Origin: an uncultured Eubacteriales bacterium
GTDB taxonomy: Bacteria; Bacillota; Clostridia; TANB77; CAG-508
Length of the DNA: 64,000 nt
Direction: 5' to 3'
Assembly (NCBI GenBank): GCA_948443845.1
Contig: CAOJUE010000003.1
Span: forward strand, 25,610-89,609
Position 1 is the stretch's first letter; the number at the start of each line of letters is the position of its first letter. Position numbers and translations under genes: made by a program. Under the pieces are notes generated by a model. That model made no database searches. It was not told the origin of the DNA and worked only from the letters and a program-made list of their open reading frames with translations. This document shows positions 3,849 through 53,702 of the stretch, one piece after another.

Positions 3849-3856
3849 AAAGGAGG

Positions 3857-4474
3857 ATGTCAATGTTAAACAATATAAGAATCAAACAAACCACAGAAGA
3901 AATTGTTTTAAATGTCAATGCGCAAACCGATAATACAGAAATATTTGAAGAATTACAAGAAAAATTGCCCAAATTGAAGGAATTTTATAAAAACTCCAAT
4001 GTTCCCATTCGAGTTGCGGGAAAATTATTCACGGAAACTGGGCGAAAAAAAATTGCTCAAATGATTGTTGAGGAAATTGATGTACAAGTCAAATTTGATG
4101 AACCATCTGATCTTTTGGGTTTGCATGCCATTAAAAAAACATTTGAAGCCGAAACAGAAATTTCGGAGACAAAATATGTCTATAATTCCATTCGTTCTGG
4201 AACGAAAGAAGAATACGTTGGGAGTCTAGTTATTTGTGGTGATGTAAATTCTGGTGCAGAAGTGGTTGCAGGTGGAAATATTATTATTTTGGGAACTTTG
4301 CGAGGTGTTGCACACGCAGGTGCAAATGGCAATAACAAAGCCATTATTGCAGTCAACACAATCGAAACAACTCAAATTAGAATATCGAATTTGGTAAAAG
4401 AAGTTGTTGAAAAAGAAGAAAGATGTCCGATTTTTGGCATCAAAAATGACAACATCGAAATGCTAAAAAATTAG
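3857..4474 (+). CDS. minC: septum site-determining protein MinC
   Basis: C-terminal MinC beta-helix motif GDVNSGAEVVAGGNIIILGTLRGVAHAG; no minD/minE follow it. Confidence 0.8.
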   Translation: MSMLNNIRIKQTTEEIVLNVNAQTDNTEIFEELQEKLPKLKEFYKNSNVPIRVAGKLFTETGRKKIAQMIVEEIDVQVKFDEPSDLLGLHAIKKTFEAETEISETKYVYNSIRSGTKEEYVGSLVICGDVNSGAEVVAGGNIIILGTLRGVAHAGANGNNKAIIAVNTIETTQIRISNLVKEVVEKEERCPIFGIKNDNIEMLKN

Positions 4475-4897
4475 CAAAAATAAAATGAGCATTAAAATAA
4501 AATCGTAATTTGAATCTTTTAAAAACTGAAAAGAATGTTTCTCATCTAAAGAATCTAGAACAGATAGAAGGTTGGCAATCTTCATATATTGTTCTAGTTT
4601 TTCTTTTTTGGTGTCTTCTAAATAAGGCTTCAAAGATTTGAGTAACTGGTTTCTAGGTCCATTTTGATTGTTCATACTACCCATAATATTTTTGATTTTC
4701 AAAATTGTGTTAATATCAAATGAAAAATCATCACCAGACTTCTCATCAGTAGGCGGATTTTCTCCGCCCAAGATGTTATTTAGGTCGATGTCTTTTTCTT
4801 TTAAAATTTCTGAAAAATTATTTAAAATGTTAGAAAAATCTTCATTCATATACAAATAGTCGATGCCCCTTTCTGCTGATTTAATCTTTTTTATCAA
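4463..4897 (-). CDS. hypothetical protein (C-terminal hydrophobic segment)
   Basis: 144-aa ORF on the opposite strand after minC; no recognisable domain. Confidence 0.4.
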   Translation of the reverse strand: MIKKIKSAERGIDYLYMNEDFSNILNNFSEILKEKDIDLNNILGGENPPTDEKSGDDFSFDINTILKIKNIMGSMNNQNGPRNQLLKSLKPYLEDTKKEKLEQYMKIANLLSVLDSLDEKHSFQFLKDSNYDFILMLILFLLIF

Positions 4898-5108
4898 ACT
4901 CTTTTTTAATGTCAGAATTGTTTAAAATTTGCTGTGCACGATAAATATTTTTTTCCAATTCTGCTTTATCCATTTTTGAAAGAACAGAAAGTAATTTATT
5001 AATATCCATGTTATTATTCAATAAAAACGCCCCCTTGATAAGATACTTTATAACAGTATATGCAGGAGTATGGGAAAAAGTAATAAATTCTGTTAAAAAA
5101 TCTTTCAA
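4881..5108 (-). CDS. hypothetical small protein; overlaps the downstream ORF by 17 nt and shares an LLSVL motif with it (possibly one gene split by a frameshift)
   Basis: 75-aa ORF. Motif NKLLSVLSKMDKAELEK is echoed in the neighbouring ORF (ANLLSVLDSLDEK). Confidence 0.3.
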   Translation of the reverse strand: MKDFLTEFITFSHTPAYTVIKYLIKGAFLLNNNMDINKLLSVLSKMDKAELEKNIYRAQQILNNSDIKKEFDKKD

Positions 5109-5563
5109 GGACTTGTCTCCCTAAGAATAAATAGATGACAAAAGTATCGTAAAATAAAATTGTAGTTGGTTAATTTACATATTAAGTTTCCTAAAATTTG
5201 ACAAAACTTCTGTCAAAACGACAACAAATTTTATCAAACTGTTGAAAAAAGCAGAGAAAAAAGTTAAAAATTTTTGAAAAAATGTCAAAAAAAGGTTGAG
5301 AAATAATGAAAAGTATGATATAATGAAAATAGGAACTTATGAAAATTAGGCAGAAAATGCAAAAGATAACATGTAACAAAAATTTTATATTTCGAAAACA
5401 AAGTAATCTAAGGCTTTATTTCCGTAAATAAAAAATTTTGGAACTTAAGAAAATCTATGATTATCAACAGTTTAGCCTATTGACTATGCAAAAAAAAGTA
5501 GTAAAATAGAATGTGATAATATAGTATAATTATAAGTAAAGTTTGTTTTTAGGAGGAAGAATT

Positions 5564-8500
5564 ATGGTAAACAGAAAAAAACTAATTGCAATGTTTCTGG
5601 TTTTCACACTGACATTTTCACATTTTGCAGTGTTGACGGAAAGCCTTGCGACAACAGGTTTTGTGTCCTTATTTGGAGCAAGTTCGGATACAGGAAACGA
5701 AAATGTTGAATTTGAGGCGTATCTAGCAAACGAAGAAGAAACGTCAAATGCGCTTGTAAGTGATGTCAACAATCAAAACCTTGCAATTGGCTTAAAACTT
5801 GACGTCAAAGAAAGCGGATATTTGAAAAACGGAAAAGTAGAAATTAAACCGCAAGAAAACGAAGAATTGAACTTCAAAATCAAGGAAGAAAATGGTGTTG
5901 CAGAGCAAGAACATGTTCAAAACTTAGAAGGGAATATTCTTGAATTGAATAAAATTGACTATTCTTCTGATGCGATTGAAATTTCCATTCCAATCAAATA
6001 TTATAACGAAGAATATATAAGCGAAACCAAACTAAATAGTACAGCCAAAGTCATTCTTTCCGGAATTTATATCGATGACGAAGGCGAAGAAAATGAGATT
6101 TCTAAAGAAGTAGAATTAACATTGGCTTGGGAAGATAATCGAACCGCCAAAGTGGAAGAAGAAATTTCAAAATATATTCAATTTGGCGATAACGGAATCA
6201 TTTTGCAAACTGTTGTCAAAGTGGATACTTCGGCTGAAAATCAGAATTCTTTACCAGTGAAAGAAACAAACTTAAGAGTTGATGTGCCACAAATCAAAGG
6301 TCAAAAGCCAAGTGAAGTGAGCGTTGTTGCCAATTCTACCAGGGGAACCAATGGTAAAGGAGTCGGAGAAGTAGAATTCACAGACGAAAACTGGGCTTAT
6401 GACCAAGAAAATGGTACGGTTCAAATCAAAGTAGAGAATCAAAAACAATTGGTAGAAGTTAGCGAATTTGACGAATATTTGAAAGTAGAAGGCGAAGAAA
6501 CCAAACAAGAAGAAAGATATTTCAGCCAAGCAGGAACGGATGAATTTGTCCTTACTTACACATTCCAGAATATTTCAATTGAAGAAGAAATGCAAGTTTC
6601 TTCGAATATTGAAGCCAAAGCAGTTTTATTTAGTGGTATCACATCGGAAAATCAGGAAACAACTACAACAGCCGAGAGAACTGATGAAATTCTTCTAACA
6701 GGACAAACCGGAAATATCATCTCCTACAACGTCGAAAACGAAACAGAGGAAGTTTCAAAATCATCAGCATACTTAAATAAAGAGCAAGAATACAATTCTA
6801 AAACTTCCATCAACGTTTCCTATACAGACATCGTAGAAGAAATGATTGTCGAAGACATTGAAAACAACTACATTGACAAATCAGGCAACAAAACGCAAAC
6901 AGAAGATATCTATTACAAACAAATTTCAGTTAGCCAAGAAAACTTTAACCAAATTTTAGGGCAAGACGGAAATATTCAAATATTAGATGATTCTGGCAAT
7001 GTTGTTGCAACAGTTAATAAAGAAACTCAAACAGACAAGAACGGAAATTTTGTAATTGATTTTCCAAACAAAATTTCAAAAATCAGCATCAAAACATCAG
7101 CGCCAGTTAATACAGGAAACTTAATTATTGCTAGCAAAAAAGCAGTTTCCAATATAAGCATCAGCAAAGACGATTATGCTAATTTAGAAGCAATCGAAAC
7201 CACAACCGTGCAAAAAGCAAAATTAACCTATGTATCAGAAATAACAGAACTAGGAAATATTTCAACAAAGACAAAACTAAGTGACACCACAACAAACTTC
7301 AACTTAAAAATTGATCGAGACAGTTTATCAACCGTAACAACAAACACAAACGTAGAAATGCGTTTGGAACTAAACAACGACAAAAAAACGTCTGACAAAT
7401 ATGGAAACTCCGTATTCGAAATCGAAATGCCAGAACAAATTACCAATATGAACATAACAAACGCAAGCATGATTTACGGAGAAGGCTTAGAAATTGTGAA
7501 TGTTGAATCATATGTAAGAGACGGAAAAATTATCATCAAAATCACGGTCGCAGGAAATCAAACTGATTTCAACTCAGGTGTTTTAACCAATGGTACCAAC
7601 ATTGTCCTAAATGCCGATATCGATGTTGACCGATTTACACCAGCCATTTATCAAGCAATTAAGGCATATTGTTATAATAGTGAAGCCACAAATTATGCAA
7701 ATTCTGTGGAATATCAGTTAGAAAATACGAACGCCGTTGCTTACCAAGAAGCAGAAATCAAATATTCTGCACCAAGCGGAGTTGTTGCAATCAATACATT
7801 ATCGAATTATAACAACAAAGGAAGCATTTTAACTTCTATGAAGCAAGGTAACAAAATCGATTATATCGATACTTATGCCGAAGCCAAACGTGCAAAAATG
7901 GAAATTGCCATCATGAATAACAACGAAAATGCCATTACCAATGTTGCGATTTTAGGAAGAATCCCATTTGAAGGAATAAAAGATTTAACAACAGATGAAA
8001 ATTTAGGAACCACACTTGACACCAAAATGGTTAGCCCAATTACTTCAAGTGAAAATAATAATGGAGAATTCACGATTTATTATTCCGAAAACAGAGAAGC
8101 AACTGGGGACCTAAATCGTGAAGCAAATGGCTGGACTACCAATCCAGAAAGTTTGGAAAACATCCAATCTTACTTAATCATTCCAAACAACGAGAATCAA
8201 ACAATTGAAGCAAAACAAGTATTAAAATTTACTTACGAATATGAAATACCAGCCAACCTAAATCATAATGAAACTATCTATGGAACCTTTGTTGCAACCT
8301 ACACAAATAACATCGATGGCAACCAAATAGAAGAACAAGTAAAACCAGACCAAATCGGTTTAACAACAGGTGCAGGTCCAGAACTAGAAATTGACTTAAA
8401 AGCAGACGTAACTGAAGTCAAAGAAAACGACGAAATCAAACTAACAACAACCATAAAAAATGTTGGTCAAGATACCGCGCAAGACGTTTTAGTGGCAATT

Positions 8501-10651
8501 CCACTACCAGCCAATACTTCTTTCGTATCCGCAGAAGCAGACAAAGACATTGCCAATATTGAATTTGCAGACGGAAAAGTCATTGTAAGAATCGAAAACT
8601 TGCCAAAAAATACATCACTTGAAATAACTACAGTTGCAAAAGTAGAAAAAATTTATTCAGAAGACACAGTCAATGTATTTGCTACAGTAGAAGCAAAAGA
8701 CTTAAATGCGCAATTGTCTTCTAATAAAATAGAAATAAAACTAGAGCCATCAGAATGGAACATTTATCAATTTATCGATTCAGAAGTGCCAGCGGATTTC
8801 TACTATAAAAAAGGCGATGAACTAAACATTACCATACGTGCTGAAAATTTAACAACTGAAAATAAAAAAGATGTTACTGTCGTGACCAAACTTCCACAAG
8901 GATTAACTTTCCAAAAAGCCTATATGGTAGGTCGTGAGGACCAAGGAAACTATGATTCTTCAAAAGGCGAAGTAACTTGGAAAATTGGCGACTTAGAAGC
9001 AAACAAAGGTCAAACCTTAAAATTAGTTGTAAACGTGGGCGATTTAAGCGAAGGAACCACAGCAAGCACGGTTTCTGTTGCAACTGAGATTTCAGCAGAA
9101 AATACGAAAAACTATTTGGCAAAAGACATCAAAATTAATATCGGAAAAAGCAGTATTCAATTTACACAAAATTCTTCAACTTCAACCTATGTTGCAGAAG
9201 GAGAAATCATCAATTATGAATTTACGATTAAAAATGAAGGCATGAAAGAAGCAAGAAATGTTGTTTTAACAGACAACATACCAGAAGGAATTGTGGTTAC
9301 GAAGATGACTTATCGAGCAGGAGAAGTGGAGTCAACAAGAAGTGTATCCGAAACAGAAAAAACGGAATTAACCTTATCTGTTCCAGCGGGTGACGAAGTA
9401 ACCGTCAACATTCAAGCCGTGGCTTCTAACTTAAATGGAAGCAAAGAAAAAACTGTTACCAATGTGGCAACACTAGCCAATGCTGGAAGGGAAGAGATTA
9501 CAAGTAACTCCGTAACGCACATTATTCAAGCAACCGAAAGTGATGAAGACCCAGAAGGTTCAGCTGTTACAGATAACAATTCTACAACCAATAATAATGG
9601 AAGCCAGTTAGGTACTAACACCAACACTGATATCACCAAATCGTACAAAATTTCAGGTGTTGCATGGCTAGATGCGAATGAGAATGGCATGAGAGATGAC
9701 GGCGAGCAAAGAATGAGTGGCGTTACAGCAATGTTAGTTGAAAGTAGCACTGGTGTTATCAAAGGAACAATGACAACCAACCAAAATGGAGAATACTCCT
9801 TTGCAGGAATTGGAAATGGTTCTTACTTAGTATTGTTCAAATATGACACGATTTTATATACAACCACAACCTATCGCAAAGAAGGAATCGAATCCAACAT
9901 CAACTCAGATGTTGTTACAACGAAGATTGAACAAAATGGAAAAAGAGAAAATGGCGCAGTAACGGATGTAATTTCCGTAAATGGTGCCAATGTAACCAAC
10001 ATAGACGTTGGACTTGTTGAAGCTGCGAAGTTTAGTTTAGGAATTGACAAAGCGATCACCAAAGTAACAGTTCAAAATGCACAAGGAACTGTAACCGAAG
10101 AATTTGACAAAACCAAACTTTCACAATATGGTATTACAGCCAAATATCTAGCAGGAACGACAGTTTATGTAGAATACACGATGACAGTTACCAACAACGG
10201 AGACCTTGCAGGATTTGCCTCAGAAATTGTAGATTATATTCCACAAGGAATGACATTCAACTCCAACCTAAATCCAGACTGGTACACAGGAGCAGGTGGA
10301 AACTTATACACCAAAGCCTTAGCGGATAAAGAATTAGCAAGTGGTCAAAGCCAAGAAATTAAGTTAGTATTAACCAAACAAATGACAACAGAAAATACGG
10401 GCTTAGTAAGTAATACAGCAGAAATCGCAGATGATTTCAATATCTACGGTGTATCAGATAGAAATTCTGTACCAAATAACAAAGCACAAGGCGAAGACGA
10501 TATTTCAACAGCAGATATTATCTTAACCGTAAAAACAGGTGAAACATTAATTTATGTATCAGCAATGATTATCAGTATTTTAATCGGTGGCGCAGTAGCG
10601 TTCATCGTGTACGAAAAAGTATTAAAGAATAAGAGAAAAGGAGGTGTTTAG
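5564..10651 (+). CDS. giant surface adhesin-like protein with Cna-B/SdrD-B-type repeat domains; signal peptide; C-terminal VKTGE motif + hydrophobic segment + KR-rich tail
   Basis: RBS aggagga then ATG at 5564 (MVNRKKLIAMFLVFTLTFS signal peptide). SdrD-B-like segment GVAWLDANENGMRDDGEQRMSGVTAMLVE...NGEYSFAGIGNGSYLVLF. C-terminus TVKTGETLIYVSAMIISILIGGAVAFIVYEKVLKNKRKGGV. Confidence 0.8.
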   Translation: MVNRKKLIAMFLVFTLTFSHFAVLTESLATTGFVSLFGASSDTGNENVEFEAYLANEEETSNALVSDVNNQNLAIGLKLDVKESGYLKNGKVEIKPQENEELNFKIKEENGVAEQEHVQNLEGNILELNKIDYSSDAIEISIPIKYYNEEYISETKLNSTAKVILSGIYIDDEGEENEISKEVELTLAWEDNRTAKVEEEISKYIQFGDNGIILQTVVKVDTSAENQNSLPVKETNLRVDVPQIKGQKPSEVSVVANSTRGTNGKGVGEVEFTDENWAYDQENGTVQIKVENQKQLVEVSEFDEYLKVEGEETKQEERYFSQAGTDEFVLTYTFQNISIEEEMQVSSNIEAKAVLFSGITSENQETTTTAERTDEILLTGQTGNIISYNVENETEEVSKSSAYLNKEQEYNSKTSINVSYTDIVEEMIVEDIENNYIDKSGNKTQTEDIYYKQISVSQENFNQILGQDGNIQILDDSGNVVATVNKETQTDKNGNFVIDFPNKISKISIKTSAPVNTGNLIIASKKAVSNISISKDDYANLEAIETTTVQKAKLTYVSEITELGNISTKTKLSDTTTNFNLKIDRDSLSTVTTNTNVEMRLELNNDKKTSDKYGNSVFEIEMPEQITNMNITNASMIYGEGLEIVNVESYVRDGKIIIKITVAGNQTDFNSGVLTNGTNIVLNADIDVDRFTPAIYQAIKAYCYNSEATNYANSVEYQLENTNAVAYQEAEIKYSAPSGVVAINTLSNYNNKGSILTSMKQGNKIDYIDTYAEAKRAKMEIAIMNNNENAITNVAILGRIPFEGIKDLTTDENLGTTLDTKMVSPITSSENNNGEFTIYYSENREATGDLNREANGWTTNPESLENIQSYLIIPNNENQTIEAKQVLKFTYEYEIPANLNHNETIYGTFVATYTNNIDGNQIEEQVKPDQIGLTTGAGPELEIDLKADVTEVKENDEIKLTTTIKNVGQDTAQDVLVAIPLPANTSFVSAEADKDIANIEFADGKVIVRIENLPKNTSLEITTVAKVEKIYSEDTVNVFATVEAKDLNAQLSSNKIEIKLEPSEWNIYQFIDSEVPADFYYKKGDELNITIRAENLTTENKKDVTVVTKLPQGLTFQKAYMVGREDQGNYDSSKGEVTWKIGDLEANKGQTLKLVVNVGDLSEGTTASTVSVATEISAENTKNYLAKDIKINIGKSSIQFTQNSSTSTYVAEGEIINYEFTIKNEGMKEARNVVLTDNIPEGIVVTKMTYRAGEVESTRSVSETEKTELTLSVPAGDEVTVNIQAVASNLNGSKEKTVTNVATLANAGREEITSNSVTHIIQATESDEDPEGSAVTDNNSTTNNNGSQLGTNTNTDITKSYKISGVAWLDANENGMRDDGEQRMSGVTAMLVESSTGVIKGTMTTNQNGEYSFAGIGNGSYLVLFKYDTILYTTTTYRKEGIESNINSDVVTTKIEQNGKRENGAVTDVISVNGANVTNIDVGLVEAAKFSLGIDKAITKVTVQNAQGTVTEEFDKTKLSQYGITAKYLAGTTVYVEYTMTVTNNGDLAGFASEIVDYIPQGMTFNSNLNPDWYTGAGGNLYTKALADKELASGQSQEIKLVLTKQMTTENTGLVSNTAEIADDFNIYGVSDRNSVPNNKAQGEDDISTADIILTVKTGETLIYVSAMIISILIGGAVAFIVYEKVLKNKRKGGV

Positions 10652-10655
10652 TCGA

Positions 10656-13600
10656 ATGATAAAAAATAACAAAATGAAAATCGCAATTGTCTTTATCTTA
10701 TTCATCATGTTAATGCCAATCTTTTTGTCAGGCAGAACGTATGCCAAAATGATTGACGAAAGTTATGTGGAAAATGATCCATGGGGACCACGCTCAATCA
10801 GCTATAACCAATTGGCTGCATTATGGGAACTATTATGTACGGAGCATATCCAACATATTCCAAGTGATAATAATGTTCGATATGCCAAAGATGGTGGTAG
10901 CACAATTGATACCACAACATTAGGAAGTAATGAATCAACTTATAATTTATTACTTGGTCATTATTATCAAAGTGAGGAACTTGCCTATTATGCCAAGATA
11001 GAGGACAAAATTTGTCCTCCAAAGGCAGCCTATATTTTGAATCATATTAAAGAAAATGAAGGTGGTTATCCATGCCCTGTACAGGTTGCATGGTGGACGA
11101 CAAAGGAAAACGTAGGTAATGTGCATCCAGAAGATAATGAATTAGCAGCAATTGGAACAGCTTACCAAGATTTTGTCAAGAAAATTGCAAAAGATAAAAA
11201 TGGCGATATTGAAGATACATCTAAATATAAGCCAATGACGCATACATTTGAAGATGGAAAAACAGTAGAAATCATGTTTCCTGAAACAGATGTGCCATCA
11301 ACCATTGAGTTTGATACATCAAAAGCAACCGTTAGTTTTGATGAAAAAAGACAAAAATGGATTGCTGGGCCTTACAATATAAAATATGTAGATGATTCTT
11401 TTAATAGCATCGATTTTGGCTTACTTGACAAATTTGATATTTACACAGATGCTAGTACAGAACCTCTAAAAGACGATGAATGGAGATTTATTTTCCCAAA
11501 AGAAAAACAAGACAAAGAAAAGAAATATCCTGCGTCAAAAGAGCCTTTCTACATTGAGCTAAATTATAAGGAAAAAGTAACCAAAATAACAGGAATTGAT
11601 GTAGATTACAAATATTTGGTAGCAGGTGGTAAATACCAAAAGTTAAGCGGAACGTATGACAAAATTGCTTGGTCTTGTACAAGAACCTGTACAGCCTCTA
11701 CTTCTTGTAGTACACTAGGACATGTGCATCAATGGAGTTATCATTTAAAAGCGGAAAAACAGAATCTTGATTTGAAATCACAAACATTAGCTGTAGAAAA
11801 CATGGCTGCAAGATGGTATGAAATCGAGAAAGTTTCGATTAAACTAAATCAATCGACTTTGAAAATTCAAAAGAAAGCATTAGATGAAAATGGAAATGAA
11901 TTGTCAGCAGATGAGGTAAAAGACAGATTTGGAAAAAATCAATATTTTGATTTCAAAATAAAAATTTCCCATAGTGATGGAAGGGTTGAAAACAGCGTTG
12001 TAACCGTAAAAGCAGGCTCAACTGCAACAGTTGGAACCTATGGCTGGACAGATAAACAAACCCCACCAACCTATGAAATCCAAGAGGTTTCAACACCATC
12101 AAATACCAGTTGGGAAGCTAAATCCATTAGTTCATCTTCTGGAACCTTGGCGGTGAACCAAACCATAACAGCAACAGCAGTCAACCAAATTAAATATAAA
12201 CGAAATAAAATACAGATTTCAAAAACGGTAAGTAGTCCCGCAGAAAAAGACGAAACCTTTAAATTCAGCGTAGATGTAACCATGCCAAACGGTAAACATG
12301 ATGTATCGACTGCTACAATCGTGGTAAAACAAGGTAAAACAACGGGAAATGTATGGAAATCCAAAGAATATACTTGGGGAGGAAAACAGGCTCCAACCTA
12401 TGAAATTACAGAGATTGAAACCGAAGACAGCAAAAAATACACACCAAGTATCACACCATCCAAAGGAAAATTGGACGGAAGCGGTTCGACGATAAAAGTA
12501 AATGCATTAAATGGTTCAGCAATGAGTTATTTGACAGTAGAAAAAGCAGTAAAAGATGGTCAGACGACAGATGACACATTCGATTTTAGAATAAAGGTAG
12601 ATGGTGTAAAAAACACAGATAGCGGAACTGTTGAATTTGAAGTGTATGACGTAAAAGCAGGCGAAAAAATTGGTCCATATGGATTCGAATGGAAAGATGC
12701 CAATAAAGCACCAACTTATCGAGTAGAAGAAATCAACATGAATTCGGATTCTAGTGTGGATATGATTGAAGAAATCGGTTCTTCTAAAGTAGTAAAAGGC
12801 AAGAATTATATTGAAGGTACATTAGTAAAAAATAAAGAAACCAATTTGACAGCCGTAAAATTTACGAATAATGTAAATCAGCATCAAGGAAATATCAAAG
12901 TTATCAAAAAGTTTTTCTCAAGCGAAAAGATGACAGAAGAAGAATTAAAAGAATTGGCTAGCCAATTGAATGTTAAATTTGATGTCGAAGTAACGATTGA
13001 AGGAACTTTCGTGTATGGTGGCGAAACCATTCAAAATTCTAGCAAAGTAATTAAACAAACTTTATCTGCAGCAAATGGCTGGGAATTCACGATTGATAAT
13101 GTTGTTTGGTATGGTCAAGAAACACCAACTTACACAGTAAAAGAGGTAAGTCTTCCAGACAAATGGGTGTGCAGGTCAATTGATTATAGCTATACAGAAA
13201 ATGAGTCGACTGATACACCAGGACATAATTTGCTAGACGGTGGAACAGTAGAAGTAACCATTGTCAACGAAATTCCGTCTGATACCGAAATTGATTTAAC
13301 TTTTGAAATGTCAGGACTTGTTTGGGTAGATGGTATCTTAGATCAAAAGAATGATGACAAATATTACAATTCGCCAAATGGTGTATACGACGAAGGCGAG
13401 CCACTAAAGGAAAACGCAGAAGTAACGGTTTATAAAGTCATTTATGATGGTGCAGGAAATGTGGTTGAAAGAAATGTGGCAACTGCTTATCAAGATGACC
13501 AAGGAAATGAAATAACCTTTCCAATTATCACAAAGTCAGATGGTAAATGGGATGTGCCAAGAATTGGTGTTCCAGGCGTAGAGCAGGAAGGCTATAGCGC

Positions 13601-16600
13601 AAGTTATGATGTAGAATTTGCGTATGATGGTCAAACGTATGAAACAACAACTTTCTTAGCTACAGCAAATGGAGATGGAGCCAGTTTTATAAATGCAACA
13701 ACAGCAGGCAAAAAAGCTTATGAAAACAACTCGATGGCAATTGAAGTTTCCAACAATAGCAAAAACATCAAAGAAGTATCTGGAAAAACAGCCATCAACG
13801 CAAATGGAGATACAACAGGTTATGTAGGCTTGAAAGACGGTGAGCAGGCTGAAATTAGTTATTCTTCTGCTAACGCAGGGACGGCGTATCCAACAATATC
13901 TCGTTTAAATACATCAAATCCTTATGATGGCAGAGTATTAGATTTATTTAAGGCAACAGCCACAACATCAGCAGGCGGATTAACGTTCCCATTTGATGTA
14001 GACGGCTACGATGGAAGTGCTTTGACAGAAGTTAATAAAACAATTGATGATTCAGGCTTCCATACAAAATATAAATTCTTAGCAGTTTATAATTACTGTT
14101 TACACATCAATCTAGGCTTGAAAGAAAGAGAAGTCGTTGATGTTGGTTTGACAAAGAACCTAACACAGGCTAATGTAGTGGTTAATGAGAGAATGTATCA
14201 ATACAAATATAGTGGACTTTATGATTTGACAGAGGAAAAACTTGGTTCGCTAAGTAAAGATATTTATGTAGGAAATAATACCGAAGAAATAGAATATACA
14301 TTAGGACTTTATCAATCCGATTATTACTACAGAGCAGAAATGTATAAAAAAGAAAATGATGATTTATATGATGTGTTAGATACATTCTATAAGAAGATTG
14401 GAAAAAATCTAAAAGATACAGAATTAGATATTTATCTAACCTATGAAATAAAGATTAAAAACACGTCACCAATTTATGATGTACAAATCAATAGCTTAGA
14501 TGACTACTATGATAGCAGTTTTACTTTGATAAGAGAAGATCAAAAGAAATATTTGAAAACGAAGATTATTGGTGGAGAAGAATTTGACGTAAACAACGAC
14601 CAAACAACCGTGGCATATGCTTCTGATTATGCAAACAATTGGAGTTCAGATAGAAAAATAAGAATGCCAGGTTCAGACATGGATGAAAACGGAAACAACA
14701 TTATCTATAACAAAATGACGGCAAACGATTTAGGCATTGTTCTAGGTCCAAATGATGAAAAAACTTTAACTTTAACCTTTAAAGTAAACAAAGCCGAAAC
14801 CAAAGCCGAGACTGAAAGTGGTGAGTATACCATTGAAAATGCGATCATCTTGGGACAAAAATGCAATGTCGCAGAAATTGCAAATTACTCTGTTTTCAAT
14901 AAAGGAACCAGAGAGTTAGCCGGAAAAATCGACCGAGATTCTGCACCAAGCAATGTCAACTTACCAGTTTACAATACAAAACCTTGGTATGAAGACGATA
15001 CGTTCGGAGCACCAAGAATTAAAGTAAACTTAGTTGGAGATGGTGTTGACAGAAACATTAATGGTGTTGTTTGGGAAGATAACAGCAATGGATCTGATAC
15101 AGCAATTCAAGAAAATCCAGATCGACGCTATAACCAATGGATTGGTAATGGTAAAAAAGATTCTGGTGAAAAAGAAATTGAAGGTTTGACAACCCAATTA
15201 GTACAAAAAATACCAGTGCAAAACGAAGATGGAACTTATACCGAATATGAATACATCTGGCCAACCGATGAACCTTTTGATTTCTTAGGCGGAGCAACTT
15301 TAGAAAAAATTACAGGATTTGATACAACCATTAAAACAGAGGGAGAAGGAAAATACAGATTCCAAAATGTAATTGCAGGCGACTATGTTGTAAGATTTAT
15401 TTATGGCGACAAGCCAATTGACTCAGCAAAATATTCAACAGTATCAACGGCAGAGTGTTACAACGGTCAAGACTACAAATCATCGAAGTTTAGGGGAATA
15501 TTAGAAAATGATGGAACAACTTTGCAGGCAGACAGTTATTTAGACATTGAGACTTATTTGGGGGCTGATGAAGGCGGAGACCGATTAAACACAGCAATTG
15601 ACAGCGAAATCGAAAGATTAAAAGTTGTACAAAAATCAAGAGAAATTACCTATGGAAATTCTTCGATTATGGCTAAATTTGATGAAAACAGCGCATTATA
15701 TACAGATTATACAATGTTTGCCGATACGCCAAAAATTGATATGAATATCGAGCTTCCAACCTTTAAACATGATGACAATGGTAAAAATGAAGTAAACAAA
15801 GATTACACATATACTGTAAAAAATGTGGATTTCGGTGTAGAAGAAAGACCAATTACAGAGATTACATTAGATAAACAAATCGAAGAAATCATTTTAACCA
15901 CGTCTGATGGAAACAATATCATGGATGCAAAATATACGATTGATTATGATGTTGATGAACATGGAAAAGTGAAAGCAAAGGTTGAATTAGACTCAGCAAA
16001 TTCATATGGAGTTGACAATTTGCAAGCATTAAACAGAGATCAAGCAACAACACGCGGTTTCAGATATATTAGTATTGACACAAGCATTTTAGAAGGAACT
16101 ACGATTACTGTTAAATACAGATTTACGGTTCTAAACACAGGAGAAGTTGACAGAACAGGCGAATTGGCAAATATGAGTTATGCAGAAGATAATATCAAAT
16201 TCCCTGAAATAATTAGCGCATTAGCAAGGAAACTTGCAACTTACAGCAAAGAAGAAAATAGCTTGAAAAATGGCACCTTGTTTGGAAACTATCTAGGAAA
16301 TATTTACTACTACGGTGCTACAGACAAAAAATTATTCGACTACAATGCCGATGGTACAAAGGATGACGACTTTGTTGTTACCTCAACCGTAAGACAATTG
16401 GTTGACTATGTTGATAATAGCGTTGTATTTAGTGGAAATCTAAATAACTTTGAAAATTCAAGTTGGAGTAATATTACAACGGAGGAATTGAAAGGACACA
16501 TTGACCCAGAGATTAAGCTTATAGACAGCAAGGGAATTGAGTATGAAACACAAAATCGAAACAACTTGATTGTAAGTGTGGACAGTACAGAAAGCACGTT

Positions 16601-17036
16601 AAATAACAAAGGATTTATTGTTGAACTATTACCTTTTGCAGCAGATAGCACGCAAGATAAAACAGACTATAAAGCGGCTATGAATTTAACAGTTACCAAA
16701 TACGTTGGTAGTGATTCCGACGACCTACAAATCGATAATGTAGCAGAAATTATAAAATACAACAACAAAGTAGGTAGACGTGATGAACTTTCTGTTGCAG
16801 GTGACCAAAATCCAGCAACAGCATTTGAGAAAACGCCAGAGTTATGGCAAGAAGAAACAGTAAGTGCAGGAATGCCATATCAAAGAGATACGAGTGCTTC
16901 TGAAATGATTACATTATCACCACCATTTGGTAGCGGACTTAGCTCATGGAAATTACAGGTAATTGGAACAATTGCAGTAAGTTTAGTAGTTGTAGCAGGT
17001 GGAATTGTAGTGATTAAGAGGAAAATTTTGAAATAG
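10656..17036 (+). CDS. second giant surface protein (~2127 aa) with repeated Cna-B-like isopeptide-type modules (TYEIQEV / TYEITEI / TYRVEEI / TYTVKEV) and SdrD-B-like segments; signal peptide and C-terminal TM anchor
   Basis: RBS aaggaggtg upstream of the ATG at 10656; the ORF overlaps the stop of the previous gene, so the two are co-transcribed. Segments GLVWVDGILDQKNDDKYYNSPNGVYDEGEPL and NGVVWEDNSNGSD...GKYRFQNVIAGDYVVRFIYG. C-terminal TM LQVIGTIAVSLVVVAGGIVVIKRKILK. Confidence 0.8.
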   Translation: MIKNNKMKIAIVFILFIMLMPIFLSGRTYAKMIDESYVENDPWGPRSISYNQLAALWELLCTEHIQHIPSDNNVRYAKDGGSTIDTTTLGSNESTYNLLLGHYYQSEELAYYAKIEDKICPPKAAYILNHIKENEGGYPCPVQVAWWTTKENVGNVHPEDNELAAIGTAYQDFVKKIAKDKNGDIEDTSKYKPMTHTFEDGKTVEIMFPETDVPSTIEFDTSKATVSFDEKRQKWIAGPYNIKYVDDSFNSIDFGLLDKFDIYTDASTEPLKDDEWRFIFPKEKQDKEKKYPASKEPFYIELNYKEKVTKITGIDVDYKYLVAGGKYQKLSGTYDKIAWSCTRTCTASTSCSTLGHVHQWSYHLKAEKQNLDLKSQTLAVENMAARWYEIEKVSIKLNQSTLKIQKKALDENGNELSADEVKDRFGKNQYFDFKIKISHSDGRVENSVVTVKAGSTATVGTYGWTDKQTPPTYEIQEVSTPSNTSWEAKSISSSSGTLAVNQTITATAVNQIKYKRNKIQISKTVSSPAEKDETFKFSVDVTMPNGKHDVSTATIVVKQGKTTGNVWKSKEYTWGGKQAPTYEITEIETEDSKKYTPSITPSKGKLDGSGSTIKVNALNGSAMSYLTVEKAVKDGQTTDDTFDFRIKVDGVKNTDSGTVEFEVYDVKAGEKIGPYGFEWKDANKAPTYRVEEINMNSDSSVDMIEEIGSSKVVKGKNYIEGTLVKNKETNLTAVKFTNNVNQHQGNIKVIKKFFSSEKMTEEELKELASQLNVKFDVEVTIEGTFVYGGETIQNSSKVIKQTLSAANGWEFTIDNVVWYGQETPTYTVKEVSLPDKWVCRSIDYSYTENESTDTPGHNLLDGGTVEVTIVNEIPSDTEIDLTFEMSGLVWVDGILDQKNDDKYYNSPNGVYDEGEPLKENAEVTVYKVIYDGAGNVVERNVATAYQDDQGNEITFPIITKSDGKWDVPRIGVPGVEQEGYSASYDVEFAYDGQTYETTTFLATANGDGASFINATTAGKKAYENNSMAIEVSNNSKNIKEVSGKTAINANGDTTGYVGLKDGEQAEISYSSANAGTAYPTISRLNTSNPYDGRVLDLFKATATTSAGGLTFPFDVDGYDGSALTEVNKTIDDSGFHTKYKFLAVYNYCLHINLGLKEREVVDVGLTKNLTQANVVVNERMYQYKYSGLYDLTEEKLGSLSKDIYVGNNTEEIEYTLGLYQSDYYYRAEMYKKENDDLYDVLDTFYKKIGKNLKDTELDIYLTYEIKIKNTSPIYDVQINSLDDYYDSSFTLIREDQKKYLKTKIIGGEEFDVNNDQTTVAYASDYANNWSSDRKIRMPGSDMDENGNNIIYNKMTANDLGIVLGPNDEKTLTLTFKVNKAETKAETESGEYTIENAIILGQKCNVAEIANYSVFNKGTRELAGKIDRDSAPSNVNLPVYNTKPWYEDDTFGAPRIKVNLVGDGVDRNINGVVWEDNSNGSDTAIQENPDRRYNQWIGNGKKDSGEKEIEGLTTQLVQKIPVQNEDGTYTEYEYIWPTDEPFDFLGGATLEKITGFDTTIKTEGEGKYRFQNVIAGDYVVRFIYGDKPIDSAKYSTVSTAECYNGQDYKSSKFRGILENDGTTLQADSYLDIETYLGADEGGDRLNTAIDSEIERLKVVQKSREITYGNSSIMAKFDENSALYTDYTMFADTPKIDMNIELPTFKHDDNGKNEVNKDYTYTVKNVDFGVEERPITEITLDKQIEEIILTTSDGNNIMDAKYTIDYDVDEHGKVKAKVELDSANSYGVDNLQALNRDQATTRGFRYISIDTSILEGTTITVKYRFTVLNTGEVDRTGELANMSYAEDNIKFPEIISALARKLATYSKEENSLKNGTLFGNYLGNIYYYGATDKKLFDYNADGTKDDDFVVTSTVRQLVDYVDNSVVFSGNLNNFENSSWSNITTEELKGHIDPEIKLIDSKGIEYETQNRNNLIVSVDSTESTLNNKGFIVELLPFAADSTQDKTDYKAAMNLTVTKYVGSDSDDLQIDNVAEIIKYNNKVGRRDELSVAGDQNPATAFEKTPELWQEETVSAGMPYQRDTSASEMITLSPPFGSGLSSWKLQVIGTIAVSLVVVAGGIVVIKRKILK

Positions 17037-17043
17037 AAGAAAG

Positions 17044-17075
17044 AAGGATGAATGGAAACATTCGTCCTTTTTTTG
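17044..17075 (+). terminator. rho-independent terminator after the giant surface-protein operon
   Basis: Hairpin ggatgaatg-gaaa-cattcgtcc followed by a T7 run, 8 nt after the stop. Confidence 0.7.
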
Positions 17076-17178
17076 TCCAGAAATGTAAGAAAATGGCAAA
17101 TTTGTCAGTGATTACAAATTTCCATAAAACTCTTGAAATTGTTATTTTTTTGTGGTATAATGAAAAAAAGGTCGAAAA

Positions 17179-17364
17179 ATGGAGGTGGTAAAAATGTCAA
17201 TATGTGATTCCAGTAAGTGTACAGGGTGTATGGTTTGTTATAATATTTGTGGGAAAAACTGTATTAAGATGGAATATGAAAGTAATGGGATTTTATCACC
17301 TGTAATAAGTGTTAATGTGCAAATTAGTAATGTATTTTGGCTCTCGAATCACAAGTGTGTCTAA
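17179..17364 (+). pseudogene. N-terminal remnant of an FrhB-like (coenzyme F420 hydrogenase beta-like) 4Fe-4S protein of the kind often paired or fused with polysaccharide pyruvyl transferases
   Basis: 61-aa ORF with CTGCMVCYNICGKNC (CxxCxxCxxxC ferredoxin motif) then a premature stop; the downstream pyruvyl transferase is in another frame. Confidence 0.45.
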
Positions 17365-17452
17365 ATATAAAATATTAGAATGCAAAAATTACTTATTAGG
17401 GTATAAGATAAATGTACTTTTAATGAGTAATTTTTTGCGGATGGGAGAGTTT

Positions 17453-18478
17453 ATGAAAAAAAAGGATTTGAAGCTAGAAGAATATGGGTTTACAAAGGTA
17501 AATAAATCGGATAAAAAAGTTTTTATTGCATTATCTGCAAATTATGGAAATATAGGAGATATAGCAATCACAATTGCACAACAAAGTATGATAAAGCAAG
17601 TTTTTTCAGATAGAAAGATAGTTGAAATTCCTATGGATGATGCTTTTGATTATGAAGAAGAAATCAAGAAAATTTTGAATGATGATGATATTTTAACAAT
17701 CATTGGTGGAGGAAATTTAGGGAATGCCTATTTGTGGTTTGAAGAAAGACGTAGATTTATTATAAAATTGTTCAAAAATAATAAATCAATTTCATTTCCT
17801 CAGAGTGTTAGTTTTGATGAAGATGAAATTGGGCAAAAAGAATTAGAAATATCAGTAGAAGATTATGCTCAAAATCCTAATTTAATAGTTTTTGCAAGAG
17901 AAAAGAAATCATATGATATTATGAAGGCTAATTTCAAAAATAAAGTATATTTGGTTCCTGATATTGTATTATCCTTAAAAGATAGAATTTCGAAAGAAAC
18001 TGGCAATATAAGAACAAATATAACATTATGCTTGAGGAGTGATATGGAAAAAACGACATCAGAGAATATTGTTGACGATTTAAGAAATTTATTAAATGCA
18101 AATGCTTTTGAAAATATAGTTATAACAGATACTCATCTTGGGCATGATTTAGTGAAAATATTAGAAAGAAGAAAAATATTTGAAACATCTTTGCAAGAAT
18201 TTAAAAACTCTAAAGTAGTAATAACAGATAGGTTACATGGAATGATTTTTTGTATTATTACGAATACACCATGTATTGCGTTAGATAATTCAAACCATAA
18301 AATTTTATCAACTTATTATACTTGGCTAAAAGATGTACCACTTGTTAAGTTTTTGGAAGATTATGATGAAGAGAAAATTTTAGGATATGTAAAAGAACTT
18401 AGTTCAATAGAAAATCCAAAGATTGATTTTAATTTTGATAAACATTTTGAGGAATTAGTGAATACTTTAAAAGAATAA
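17453..18478 (+). CDS. polysaccharide pyruvyl transferase family protein (CsaB-like)
   Basis: PS_pyruv_trans signature region ITDRLHGMIFC; alternative start at 17444. Sits in a glycosyltransferase cluster. Confidence 0.7.
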   Translation: MKKKDLKLEEYGFTKVNKSDKKVFIALSANYGNIGDIAITIAQQSMIKQVFSDRKIVEIPMDDAFDYEEEIKKILNDDDILTIIGGGNLGNAYLWFEERRRFIIKLFKNNKSISFPQSVSFDEDEIGQKELEISVEDYAQNPNLIVFAREKKSYDIMKANFKNKVYLVPDIVLSLKDRISKETGNIRTNITLCLRSDMEKTTSENIVDDLRNLLNANAFENIVITDTHLGHDLVKILERRKIFETSLQEFKNSKVVITDRLHGMIFCIITNTPCIALDNSNHKILSTYYTWLKDVPLVKFLEDYDEEKILGYVKELSSIENPKIDFNFDKHFEELVNTLKE

Positions 18479-18510
18479 ATAAAAAACTTGGTATAATCCA
18501 AGTTTTTTTA

Positions 18511-19518: not shown

Positions 19519-19521
19519 ATT

Positions 19522-24202: not shown

Positions 24203-24345
24203 GGGGCGATGCCCACATCCGCCCAATAAACCAAATGCCACATCATTAATTGACCACAATTAAAATTGCACAAAGTAGGGGCACGGGGCACCGTGCTCAC
24301 CCAATCGAAATCCCAATGACCCAAAATATAAAAAGGAGGAAATCC

Positions 24346-26203: not shown

Positions 26204-26263
26204 GAGGTTGAGGCTTTGCCGATTACAGATTGCATACCTTATAAAAGAAAGGAAAATGAATTA

Positions 26264-42459: not shown

Positions 42460-42474
42460 AAAGAGGTGGAATGT

Positions 42475-53452: not shown

Positions 53453-53474
53453 TTTTATAATATAAAGCAAAAGT

Positions 53475-53702
53475 GTGAAAATGACTTTTAATCTAAAGAG
53501 TCAAACTTCACACTTCTTACAATTTTACCACAAAGTAAGAAAAACTATAAATGGAAAGCTAGTAACCTTTATAGAGGTTATGGAATGTGATGTGTTTGGT
53601 GTAGAAGAAATGGTATATGGGGATTATTTAAATAAGTTTCCCGTAACCCCCGAAAATCACAGTAAAAATATATCAGTAGAAGAAATAGAATTACCATTTT
53701 AG
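53475..53702 (+). CDS. hypothetical small protein
   Basis: 75-aa ORF; no recognisable domain. Confidence 0.3.
   Translation: MKMTFNLKSQTSHFLQFYHKVRKTINGKLVTFIEVMECDVFGVEEMVYGDYLNKFPVTPENHSKNISVEEIELPF

Follow-up and report, generated by a model that had tools for sequence, protein, structure and literature searches.

A translationally coupled pair of giant stalk proteins, one with a probable thioester-domain head, in uncultured gut Clostridia

Two giant proteins, P1 and P2, encoded next to each other in the 64-kb stretch of DNA analysed here (the window), make up a single two-gene operon and would constitute a new branch within an already known class of adhesins from Gram-positive bacteria. 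The explanation that we favour as a whole, and regard as somewhat better than an even bet, is that in an uncultured gut Clostridium this operon encodes giant stalk proteins that Sec exports to the cell surface as fibrillar adhesins, P2 being of the TIE type, P1 its partner stalk protein and the C-termini of both being derived from sorting signals. The head of P2 most likely holds an internal Cys61-Gln376 thioester, which would react with a nucleophile on the target and so tie the cell to it covalently. Below it would lie a rigid stalk made up of four CnaB-like isopeptide-type domains plus two SdrD_B-like/CLIPPER-like modules, and homologous C-terminal modules (CLIPPER-like domain, last strand, x-x-[T/F]-G, transmembrane helix and basic tail) would hold both proteins at the cell. 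The initial annotation of this DNA had proposed co-expressed, secreted giant proteins of the adhesin type, for which the operon, the signal segments and the stalk domains (Table 1) give support.

Table 1. Features of the P1-P2 operon, with positions in the window.
Feature	Position	Strand	Basis and remarks
Promoter-like site TTGAGA-17-TATAAT, extended TG	5296..5324	+	consensus scan only
Second promoter candidate	5480-5507		consensus scan only
P1 gene	5564..10651	+	1695 aa; ORF and translation; conserved stalk protein
P1 signal-peptide-like N-terminus	5564..5656	+	MVNRKK, hydrophobic stretch, SLA; sequence inspection
P1 Ig-like beta-sandwich string, aa 36-945	5669..8398	+	AF2 pLDDT 87, all-beta
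Three CLIPPER/DUF11 (CnaA-like) domains, P1 aa 946-1330	8399..9553	+	PF01345, TIGR01451
P1 SdrD_B domain, aa 1363-1454	9650..9925	+	PF17210, 54.9 bits; DxNxNG calcium-loop motif
P1 C-terminal CLIPPER/DUF11 domain, aa 1471-1657	9974..10534	+	PF01345, 29.4 bits scanned alone
P1 motif TVKTGE, aa 1655-1660	10526..10543	+	T1658, G1659, E1660 invariant
P1 transmembrane helix (aa 1661-1683) and basic tail EKVLKNKRKGGV	10544..10648	+	
Shine-Dalgarno GGAGG for P2	10640..10644	+	within last codons of P1 (K-G-G-V)
P2 gene	10656..17036	+	2126 aa from ATG 10656; putative TIE-type adhesin
P2 signal peptide, aa 1-30	10656..10745	+	ends TYA, next residue K; A30 invariant
Thioester-domain-like head, P2 aa 31-399	10746..11852	+	class II type layout; motifs, AF2, Foldseek
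Four CnaB-like isopeptide-type repeats, P2 aa 400-876	11853..13283	+	triads, hhalign, Foldseek
P2 SdrD_B-like module 1 and CLIPPER-like domain with insertions, aa 877-1459	13284..15032	+	hhalign
P2 SdrD_B-like module 2 and C-terminal CLIPPER-like domain, aa 1460-2087	15033..16916	+	hhalign
P2 motif SPPFG	16917..16931	+	family consensus [ST]PPTG
P2 transmembrane helix (aa 2101-2119) and tail IKRKILK	16956..17033	+	
Intrinsic-terminator-like hairpin and U run	17036..17077	+	closes operon; RNA fold

Both large plus-strand reading frames lie where they had initially been placed, P1 running from its ATG to the stop codon at 10649-10651. The lengths first given, 1695 and 2127 aa, hold for P1, and P2 comes to 2126 aa from the ATG or 2130 aa from an alternative GTG at 10644. 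Only with that GTG would start and stop overlap, as had been claimed; the GTG is part of the Shine-Dalgarno sequence of P2, and the ATG, 11 nt 3' of GGAGG and 4 nt past the P1 stop, is taken as the start (the database copy of P2 begins at an internal Met, 10674). The terminal codons of P1 (AAA GGA GGT GTT TAG) thus contain the P2 ribosome-binding site, a feature that the initial annotation did not mention. Co-expression is supported by this embedded site and not by overlapping frames, and since the site lies in the last four codons of P1 the two proteins would be made together. Junctions of the same kind are seen in homologous loci, with an exact GGAGG in 34 of 61 distinct P1/P2 junctions and the ATG 6-12 nt downstream. 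The hairpin that follows P2 has a folding energy of -21.4 kcal/mol (z = -5.9; 0/200 shuffles equally stable). Embedded site, conserved junction and terminator together bear out the co-transcription originally suggested. No Rfam family matched the leader (4900-5600). The pair is kept in 65 of 68 related loci, in differing flanking contexts.

In P1, approximately 900 aa of Ig-like sequence are followed by CLIPPER/DUF11 domains, a single SdrD_B domain and, last, another CLIPPER domain. The Ig-like string is the better conserved half of the protein and has no Pfam match. Its best Foldseek match is to the Ig-like stalk domains of the Enterococcus aggregation substance PrgB (PDB 8BEG, E 7e-18), followed among the top matches by integrin alpha legs and alpha-2-macroglobulin MG domains; the likeness to PrgB is, however, generically Ig-like, at 10% sequence identity, and the PrgB adhesin domain is absent from P1. 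Against Pfam PF01345 (DUF11/CLIPPER) P1 scores 112 bits over four stretches, the CLIPPER repeats match each other at 95-97% in hhalign, and the C-terminal copy, scanned by itself, exceeds the cut-off of 24.6 bits. This last copy, a homologue of the P2 C-terminal domain (hhalign 88%), has K1500, E1537 and N1617 as invariant columns, and these are candidates for the residues of an isopeptide bond. Structures have proven the CLIPPER domain of fibrillar adhesin stalks to be a CnaA-like isopeptide domain (PMC12617251). As in those adhesins, PF01345 domains stand in tandem in the stalk, here too that of a long protein that is secreted, and the Lys and Asn positions are conserved in the C-terminal copy of P1. 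Some other copies, however, lack the conserved Lys (e.g., an invariant Gln at 1202), the Pfam-unannotated Ig-like region of 900 aa is an addition, and the length of P1 is constant at approximately 1700 aa whereas theirs varies with repeat number. The many Cna-B modules first ascribed to P1 were an error, as Pfam returned DUF11/CLIPPER and SdrD_B and no Cna_B; the SdrD-B-like calcium-binding segment was confirmed. That domain matches Staphylococcus aureus SdrD structures in phmmer (PDB 10PS, 4JDZ) and resembles the SdrD B repeats, Dx[ND]xNG calcium loop included; unlike SdrD, P1 has a single B copy, no tandem array, and no Ser-Asp repeat, A-domain ligand-binding region or LPXTG.

In P2 the head is followed by four CnaB-like repeats, which match each other at 98-99% in hhalign and carry Lys/Glu/Asn triads in invariant columns (K406/E477/N510, K523/E586/N619, K630/E692/N738 and K758/E830/N871). 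Scanned one at a time, and only then, the repeats match DUF7601, DUF5979 and Cna_B, all CnaB-like families with Lys/Glu/Asn isopeptides: repeat 2 passes DUF7601 (27.5 bits vs. a cut-off of 27) and repeat 4 matches Cna_B below threshold. Foldseek relates them to pilins and to BaTIE. The assignment of Cna-B modules to P2 stands in so far as the four TYxxxE repeats are CnaB-like, although its Pfam support depends on single-repeat scanning. The two SdrD_B-like modules are diverged: hhalign gives module 1 a probability of 72% and module 2 one of 97% against the P1 SdrD_B domain (90% against each other), but Pfam SdrD_B reaches 18 bits, under its cut-off, so that the SdrD-B segments earlier assigned to P2 are upheld by the former and not by the latter. 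The middle CLIPPER-like region matches the P1 C-terminal domain at 89% and has K1167 and N1404 as invariant columns of aa 877-1459. Its C-terminal counterpart contains K1740 and N2028 and terminates in a conserved last strand, ERDTSASEMITL; conservation over aa 1460-2087 is 0.88.

The head of P2 had gone unremarked in the initial annotation. Three motifs define thioester domains, [YFL]C-phi-zeta, TQXX-phi-W and phi-Q-zeta-phi-phi (PMC6194298), and the head fits all of them, with C61 in LLCTE, Q143 in VQVAWW and Q376 in SQTLA. These three residues and W146 are among the few invariant columns of the P2 alignments, and C61 has no conserved partner cysteine. The AF2 model (pLDDT ~80) places C61 in a strand and Q143 in a helix. 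With P2 as Foldseek query, BaTIE (PDB 6FWV) was the second-best match, E 3e-14 over 672 columns, to which the head and the isopeptide-type domains contribute inseparably; the models comprise several domains, which keeps the TM-scores low (0.14-0.20). Sequence motifs and model together indicate that the head probably carries a thioester domain. It may instead be an ordinary non-covalent binding or structural domain whose conserved Cys and Gln are otherwise used, in catalysis or metal binding, a distinctly less probable reading with which several negative searches agree: thioester-domain profiles and PDB sequences gave no match, Pfam TED none even at E <= 1, profiles of the head matched no PDB chain and no Pfam family, and only 66 relatives were found among 1.84 billion representatives (0/7 scanned have Pfam annotation). 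Thioester domains are, however, highly divergent, Cys and Gln being their only universal residues (PMC6194298), and the correct order of three invariant motifs on the expected secondary-structure elements, together with the end-to-end alignment to full-length BaTIE, argues for the thioester.

BaTIE, from Bacillus anthracis, has a class II thioester domain (PMC6194298) and shares with P2 a signal peptide, a head with the three motifs and a beta-sandwich inserted between helical bundle and Gln strand, a CnaB-type isopeptide stalk and, at the C-terminus, a motif followed by a transmembrane helix and a basic tail. P2 differs in being four times longer, in a head that the Pfam TED and TQXA models miss, in its additional two SdrD_B-like and CLIPPER-like modules, in ending with SPPFG (in the family [ST]PPTG) instead of LPATG, and in its translational coupling to a second giant protein.

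P1 and P2 have exactly two hydrophobic segments each, one N-terminal (aa 6-26 of P1 by Kyte-Doolittle; aa 4-30 of P2) and one C-terminal, the latter followed by a K/R tail, as the initial annotation had described; TVKTGE in P1 and SPPFGSG in P2 (aa 2088-2094) were likewise found as reported, and the C-terminal motifs are conserved in orthologues, so that their absence there, which the initial annotation had named as refuting its reading, is not what is seen. The conserved form in P1 is [VI][KR]TGE; among unique P1 tails, 54/62 have [VI][KRSG]TGE, position 2 is never Pro, and the transmembrane helix starts directly after TGE. No part of P2 is more strongly conserved than the motif: 90 of 96 distinct P2-type tails have [ST]PPTG, then a spacer of 9-10 aa, the transmembrane helix and a basic tail of 6-7 aa, an arrangement that agrees with the tripartite sorting signal. 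An LPXTG-like signal of the clostridial (S/P)PXTG type is thus present in the family, and the description of these proteins as lacking LPXTG motifs fails at the family level. SPPFG of the window is a derived, recurrent Thr-to-Phe variant; the change arose in at least three independent branches, and Ser, Ala or Ile was never seen. We infer that, at family level, the C-terminal module is a diverged form of the clostridial (S/T)PxTG type of cell-wall sorting signal, and that ancestrally an unlinked housekeeping sortase would have cut after Thr and joined the protein to peptidoglycan. Since P2 of the window has Phe for the scissile Thr, it would more likely be left tethered by its transmembrane helix.

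A close parallel is SrtB of C. difficile, which recognizes (S/P)PXTG (PMC4155245) and cleaves it between T and G; in vivo, processing is confined to SPKTG/PPKTG proteins (PMC5569036), and NVQTG is uncleaved in vitro. Its substrates CD2831, CD3246, CD3392 and CD2537 (PMC4155245, PMC5569036) are clostridial surface adhesins with (S/P)PXTG signals, in which a non-LPXTG pentapeptide (SPKTG/PPKTG) precedes an acidic residue, after which come a hydrophobic helix and a basic tail, the layout common to the P1/P2 family; there too the sortase is encoded apart from its substrates. The SPPTG form of the P2 family fits (S/P)PXTG, and KTGE-T-L of P1 resembles PKTGDETQL. Unlike these substrates, the P2 family most commonly has TPPTG, P1 has Val or Ile in place of the required Pro, P2 of the window has Phe at the scissile position, and no c-di-GMP riboswitch was detected upstream of P1 by Rfam (leader 4900-5600).

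As the initial annotation had noted, no sortase or pilus-assembly gene lies nearby. Pfam scans of the flanking reading frames gave no sortase, the 64-kb window has neither a sortase nor a TLxTC-type motif in any ORF of at least 120 aa, and no sortase was found in the 68 loci (~1.6 Mb). Membrane anchorage and a distant, variant-specific sortase both remain live options. P1 and P2 could be permanent, uncleaved type I membrane proteins, xxTG and PP[T/F]G being simply where the last CLIPPER-like domain and its linker end as structures; with P3, a third paralogue, where present, they would form a side-by-side membrane-anchored hetero-complex with stalks crossing the wall, and the helices and tails would be conserved because of this assembly. 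We give this a substantial but minor probability. It is consistent with several observations counted against a sortase: the repeated Thr-to-Phe change without intermediates, the P1 motif without Pro at position 2 and with its helix abutting TGE, the P2-family cytoplasmic tail IKKKVLK, kept as sequence and not only as charge (conservation 0.92), and, in lineages near the window, a P3 that stops right after ISPPTGL with neither helix nor tail. Translational coupling, which suggests fixed stoichiometry, the homologous C-terminal domains, and the lack of a linked sortase or of a match to NCBIfam C-terminal sorting-signal models also agree with it. On the other side, [ST]PPTG with helix and basic tail is the exact layout of a sortase signal of the clostridial (S/P)PXTG kind, Gram-positive TIE proteins and CLIPPER/SdrD_B adhesins are typically sortase-anchored (PMC6194298), the KGGV end of P1 is conserved because of the embedded ribosome-binding site and not through protein interaction, and the hetero-complex itself is without direct evidence.

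It is improbable that the tails represent a novel sorting signal recognized by a membrane-embedded protease or transpeptidase other than a sortase, encoded elsewhere, in the manner of exosortase, archaeosortase or rhombosortase. Phe is tolerated where sortases need Thr, polar Q2101 and G2116 in or near the P2 helix are invariant, known sorting-signal models do not match and the literature search found no description of the tail motif; but no candidate enzyme recurs across the 68 neighbourhoods, a dedicated sorting enzyme usually has many substrates that are linked to it or co-occur with it, and the tail, negative with the NCBIfam models, is nearly confined to P1/P2 paralogues (one other sorting-signal-like protein in ~1.7 Mb). 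A pilus polymerised by sortase, in which P2 would be the tip adhesin and P1 the shaft or base, is very unlikely. It is suggested by pilins and tip pilins among the best P2 Foldseek matches (T-antigen, PitA, SpaC, BcpA) and by the islet-like clusters of two or three paralogues, not all of which have the adhesive head, but is largely refuted by the absence of a class C sortase from the window and the 68 loci and of the YPK pilin motif from both proteins, by sizes 5-8 times those of pilins, and by the setting of the pair among core cell-shape and division genes.

P1 homologues of approximately 1700 aa each make up more than 525 clusters at 45-68% identity, and all loci of the P1-P2 family come from uncultured gut Clostridia.

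Two very large ORFs follow each other on the plus strand and encode the proteins P1 and P2 (for coordinates of all features, see the table). The initial annotation gave their sizes as 1695 and 2127 aa; the former was confirmed and the latter was not, P2 being 2126 aa long from the ATG at 10656 or 2130 aa from a GTG at 10644. Its database copy, which starts at an internal Met, has 2120 aa. The two genes had also been described as co-translated through an overlap of start and stop. The pairing is upheld but the overlap is not, as it requires the GTG, which is itself within the ribosome-binding site. The junction reads AAA GGA GGT GTT TAG tcga ATG, and a perfect GGAGG is situated inside the last four P1 codons (K-G-G-V), with the P2 ATG 11 nt past it and 4 nt past the P1 stop. 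An exact GGAGG was found in 34 of the 61 distinct homologous P1/P2 junctions, the ATG lying 6-12 nt downstream. P1 proteins end in ...KGGV because the ribosome-binding site of the next gene is embedded there, and conservation of these residues at the protein level is thus driven by a translation signal. A hairpin followed by a U run is located 3' of the P2 stop (-21.4 kcal/mol, z = -5.9 by RNA folding). The P1 leader has no Rfam match, which argues against riboswitch control of the kind known for C. difficile adhesins.

Positions of the features discussed, in the window unless a related locus from another genome is named
Feature	Coordinates	Strand	Remark
144-aa ORF	4463-4897	-	approximately 1 kb upstream of P1
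Promoter-like sites	5296-5324; 5480-5507		consensus match only
P1	5564-10651	+	ATG 5564; stop 10649-10651
K-G-G-V of P1 and stop	10637-10651	+	P2 Shine-Dalgarno in coding sequence (AAAGGAGGTGTTTAG); compared with 61 homologous junctions
GGAGG	10640-10644	+	
P2	10656-17036	+	
Phe 2091 of P2	16926-16928	+	Thr to Phe in PPxG
Wall-polymer cluster	17309-21190		straight 3' of P2
Calcium/sodium antiporter	21453-22395		ORFs 21453-21938, 21680-21970, 21814-22395
[FeFe] hydrogenase operon	23720-28018		
HTH_36, ParB, TnpV	41785-43906		
Low-GC region	42000-58000		GC 0.24-0.26, strong positive GC skew
Two-helix ORF, locus L007	~3270-3640		between P3 and P1
Two-helix ORF, locus L009	~3730-4100		between P3 and P1
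356-aa protein, locus L030	17093-18163	-	ends ...NFPYTGSNKPYFLLIAFSIIISSLSVYLYIRIKKH

Both proteins start with basic residues, a hydrophobic segment and an AxA-like site, that is, a predicted Sec signal peptide, and both end in a hydrophobic segment with a basic tail at the extreme C-terminus, so that hydrophobicity bears out what had been claimed for the termini. In each protein the signal-like N-terminal segment and the C-terminal one, followed by K/R residues, are the only hydrophobic segments. Pfam assigns DUF11 to four stretches of P1 (112.3 bits) and SdrD_B to aa 1363-1454 (54.9 bits), both above the gathering score, and the latter domain aligns to the S. aureus SdrD structures with the calcium loop included. 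DUF11 (PF01345) now goes by the name CLIPPER; structures have established it as a CnaA-like isopeptide domain, and it is characteristic of the stalks of fibrillar adhesins (PMC12617251). The last domain ahead of the membrane segment (aa 1471-1657) is likewise CLIPPER when scanned alone (29.4 bits) and is the best-conserved segment of the protein (0.76). No Pfam match was obtained for the first 900 residues; their model is confidently all-beta (pLDDT 87), and the best structural matches of the N-terminal half are strings of Ig-like domains, namely the PrgB stalk, the integrin alpha legs and the MG domains of alpha-2-macroglobulin. Conservation in this half exceeds that of the CLIPPER repeats (majority fraction 0.65 vs 0.51). 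Homologues of P1 fall into more than 525 clusters, each of approximately 1700 aa, at 45-68% full-length identity.

Searches with the whole P2 protein yielded nothing in Pfam, NCBIfam or the PDB sequences, and its family profile gave only a chance match to a phage tail in the PDB (E 0.38). The domain layout is based on an alignment of 20 homologues and a model of aa 27-880 (pLDDT 82). Four repeats at aa 400-876 are mutually homologous (hhalign 98-99%), and their Lys/Glu/Asn triads, K406/E477/N510, K523/E586/N619, K630/E692/N738 and K758/E830/N871, are invariant in the 20 homologues. Scanned singly, repeat 2 passes the DUF7601 threshold (27.5 bits vs 27) and touches DUF5979, repeat 4 matches Cna_B at 18.1 bits against a cut-off of 22.3, repeat 1 matches weakly and repeat 3 not at all; the full-length Pfam scan gave no Cna_B, DUF7601 or DUF5979 match. 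All three are CnaB-like Lys/Glu/Asn isopeptide families (triad definition in PMC12617251, Table 1). The TYxIxE-type Cna-B modules that the initial annotation saw in both proteins are therefore real in P2 as CnaB-like repeats, where they number four rather than "many", and have to be withdrawn for P1, in which Pfam gives no Cna_B. New protein-ligation tags might be derived from these four isopeptide-type repeats. Two SdrD_B-like modules follow (aa 877-1459 and 1460-2087). Their opening segments match the P1 SdrD_B domain at 72% and 97% (hhalign) and stay below threshold in Pfam (SdrD_B, 18 bits), so that the SdrD-B modules proposed earlier amount to one clear case in P1 and two diverged segments in P2. 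In each module a CLIPPER-like domain comes next, which has large insertions and conserved Lys and N-x-A-E-I positions, its link to CLIPPER being through hhalign to the P1 C-terminal domain only (88-89%).

The head of P2 (aa 31-399) contains, in order, all three published motifs of the thioester domain (TED), [YFL]C-phi-zeta, TQXX-phi-W and phi-Q-zeta-phi-phi (PMC6194298). The first is present as LLC61TE, on a strand in the model, its C61 being invariant in 21 homologues and having no conserved partner cysteine. The second, VQ143VAWW, has invariant Q143 and W146 and is helical in the model, in the second of three helices. The third, SQ376TLA, with the candidate bond-forming Gln, is also invariant and is placed as expected after a putative class II beta-sandwich insert, the model having a beta-rich insert ahead of the Q376 strand. 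C61, Q143, W146 and Q376 belong to the small set of columns that are invariant in P2, and the modelled layout resembles that of a class II thioester domain. In Foldseek searches with P2 a full-length B. anthracis TIE adhesin (6fwv) ranked second (E 3e-14, 672 columns) amid pilins and tip adhesins; the TM-scores, kept low by the multi-domain models, count against a thioester domain. So does the sequence level, at which P2 has no match to Pfam TED, TIGRFAM TQXA or the solved thioester-domain sequences, Pfam found no TED in 21 P2-type N-terminal domains at E <= 1, and the head profile had no PDB match at E <= 10. The family is rare, with 66 relatives among 1.84 billion representatives (phmmer), and of the seven that were scanned with Pfam none was annotated with a domain. 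Judging from motifs and model, the P2 head is likely to be a thioester domain, and a head family that current thioester-domain models do not see is new. Should it form a thioester, the range of covalent "harpoon" adhesion would widen to include a large uncultured clade, by way of a domain family missed by these models.

How the two proteins are held at the surface is less straightforward. The motifs TVKTGE of P1 and SPPFGSG of P2 are indeed where the initial annotation had placed them. Many related loci encode a third giant protein, P3, a paralogue of P2, and the 96 distinct P2/P3-type tails carry TPPTG (57), SPPTG (26), another xPPTG (7) or SPPFG (6). In P2-type tails the motif is followed by a spacer of 9-10 aa, a hydrophobic helix and a tail of 6-7 aa (IKKKVLK), and motif plus preceding strand form the most conserved part of P2 (0.88 vs a protein mean of 0.58). 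P1-type tails have [VI][KRSG]TGE with the helix directly after; T1658, G1659 and E1660 are invariant, and at position 2 the 62 tails have Val or Ile and in no case Pro. Absence of the motifs from orthologues, named beforehand as a ground for doubt, is thus not what was found, [ST]PPTG being present in 90 of the 96 homologous tails. The statement that LPXTG is lacking is correct for P2 of the window, where Phe replaces the scissile Thr and no Thr-Gly is left, but not for the family, since [ST]PPTG is an xPxTG pentapeptide. The C. difficile SrtB motif is (S/P)PXTG, cleaved between T and G, to which SPPTG conforms (PMC4155245).

The likeness to SrtB substrates invites a plain sortase reading of the P1 and P2 tails. 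Several features argue against it. The change from Thr to Phe is found on no fewer than three separate branches, that of the window among them (also in the homologous proteins P0012, P0015, P0020 and P0029), and needs two nucleotide changes; only Phe replaces Thr and neither Ser, Ala nor Ile is seen there, and in the C. difficile model the sortase contacts the hydroxyl of this Thr, at motif position P1. The P1 protein never has Pro at motif position 2, and C. difficile SrtB failed to cleave the comparable NVQTG in vitro; in vivo only SPKTG/PPKTG proteins are processed in that species (PMC5569036). In lineages close to that of the window (loci L003, L004, L007, L009, L010 and L012), P3, upstream of the P1 homologue, keeps the motif and ends 2-3 residues past ITISPPTGL, with no helix or basic tail in any frame. 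More distant lineages have P3 with a spacer of 16-20 aa, helix and tail. Finally, even the sequence of the P2 cytoplasmic tail is conserved (0.92). Compared alone with the curated NCBIfam sorting-signal models (LPXTG, NPXTG, PEP-CTERM-type, Firmicu-CTERM and others; E <= 10), no tail scored above threshold, the only match being Rumino_NPXTG (16.1 bits vs 23.5), which covers the P2 helix and tail alone. The 64-kb window has no sortase gene, as had been noted, and no TLxTC-type signature was recognized in it or in the ORFs of 68 related loci, the few pattern matches falling within antisense ORFs or the genes for a histidine kinase and an antiporter. The only other sortase-signal-like tail in approximately 1.7 Mb is that of the 356-aa protein of locus L030, which hints at possible use of an xPxTG sortase signal in one or more of these genomes. 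TPPTG, SPPTG and VKTGE are not mentioned as sorting motifs in the literature searched, and the tail variants [ST]PP[T/F]G and [VI]KTGE are new. Their natural variation (SPPTG/SPPFG/[VI]KTGE) offers a test set for the tolerance of clostridial sortases, or for tails acting as plain membrane anchors.

The best reading, which we hold to be slightly better than an even bet, combines paired stalks, a thioester head and anchors derived from sorting signals. P1 and P2 would be co-translated surface stalks stiffened by isopeptide bonds, and P2 would carry a thioester warhead for covalent adhesion. Their tethers would be homologous C-terminal modules that go back to a sorting signal of the clostridial (S/T)PxTG kind. 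Processing of this signal in most relatives would probably fall to a housekeeping sortase encoded at an unlinked site; here P2, with SPPFG, would more likely stay a type I membrane protein. Among known systems, those most similar are the class II TIE proteins (BaTIE), the C. difficile SrtB substrates, the CLIPPER fibrillar adhesins and the SdrD B repeats.

Among the alternatives, the strongest, though an unlikely one, is that none of P1, P2 and P3 is ever cleaved, the motif being structural and the conserved helices and tails reflecting a membrane complex; the conserved cytoplasmic tail and the Phe variants suit it, the conformity of SPPTG to the SrtB motif does not. It is doubtful that P1 and P2, with P3 where present, make up a lineage-wide surface apparatus without sortase, either tethered by the conserved transmembrane helices and tails or cut by an unknown enzyme at PP[T/F]G / [VI]KTGE as a signal not described before, and acting jointly as a single hetero-complex whose thioester-type warhead would come from a family with no sequence relationship to known TED models. 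Reading of the tails by an unknown non-sortase sorting enzyme is improbable, the curated PEP-CTERM-type and similar models having found nothing above threshold. A sortase-assembled pilus can be practically dismissed, because P1 and P2 have no YPK motif and no sortase, including class C, was found in the window or the 68 loci. The PP of the motif also raised the idea of a site for a Pro-Pro endopeptidase, like the one in CD2831 of C. difficile. The PPEP-1 consensus, VNP↓PVP, is absent.

A scan of one genome per species found 64 loci, all in MAGs of uncultured gut Clostridia, some labelled Candidatus Scatovivens; the hosts of the cassette genomes are human, mouse, rabbit, chicken and ruminant. 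In 65 of 68 loci a P2-type gene comes directly after a P1-type gene, and in many P3 lies just upstream of the pair, the window having none. PBP2 and MinC recur upstream and SpoIIE, a WG-repeat protein, ACPS and TatD downstream, a few loci having other flanking genes. Clustering of approximately 1150 ORFs from the 68 loci returned core genes as the recurrent neighbors (PBP2, MinC, SpoIIE, ACPS, TatD and Mur ligase) and no recurring accessory gene or enzyme. Conservation of the cassette at one fixed site on the chromosome extends to at least 64 species-level genomes, and such a fixed, translationally coupled pair at a core site across a large uncultured clade is new. P1 and P2 probably provide these commensals with a main means of attachment to something in the gut.

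In L007 and L009 a small ORF with two transmembrane helices (MKSVKGKV...AIKYISAAPSEKAEIKK...), resembling a VirB2/TrbC-type pilin, is found between P3 and P1. The 144-aa ORF on the strand opposite to P1 has no Pfam or NCBIfam match; its position is kept in 15 loci, and it may simply belong to the conserved core gene order. The wall-polymer cluster, which occurs in this genome specifically, encodes a polysaccharide pyruvyl transferase, two glycosyltransferases of GT2 type and a histidine phosphatase; in most relatives P2 is followed by SpoIIE. The antiporter is spread over three overlapping ORFs and may represent a frameshift or a pseudogene. NuoE-like, NuoF-like and group A6 [FeFe] hydrogenase genes form an operon for an NADH-dependent hydrogenase of the electron-bifurcating type. 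Within the low-GC region, TnpV is followed in order by DUF3427+NOV_C, a Schlafen-type helicase, a KAP NTPase, an overlapping pair of DUF6414 and AAA ATPase genes, Fic+wHTH, a metallophosphoesterase and a SocA/Panacea antitoxin with an unknown partner, and the whole set resembles a mobile element with an anti-phage defence island after it.
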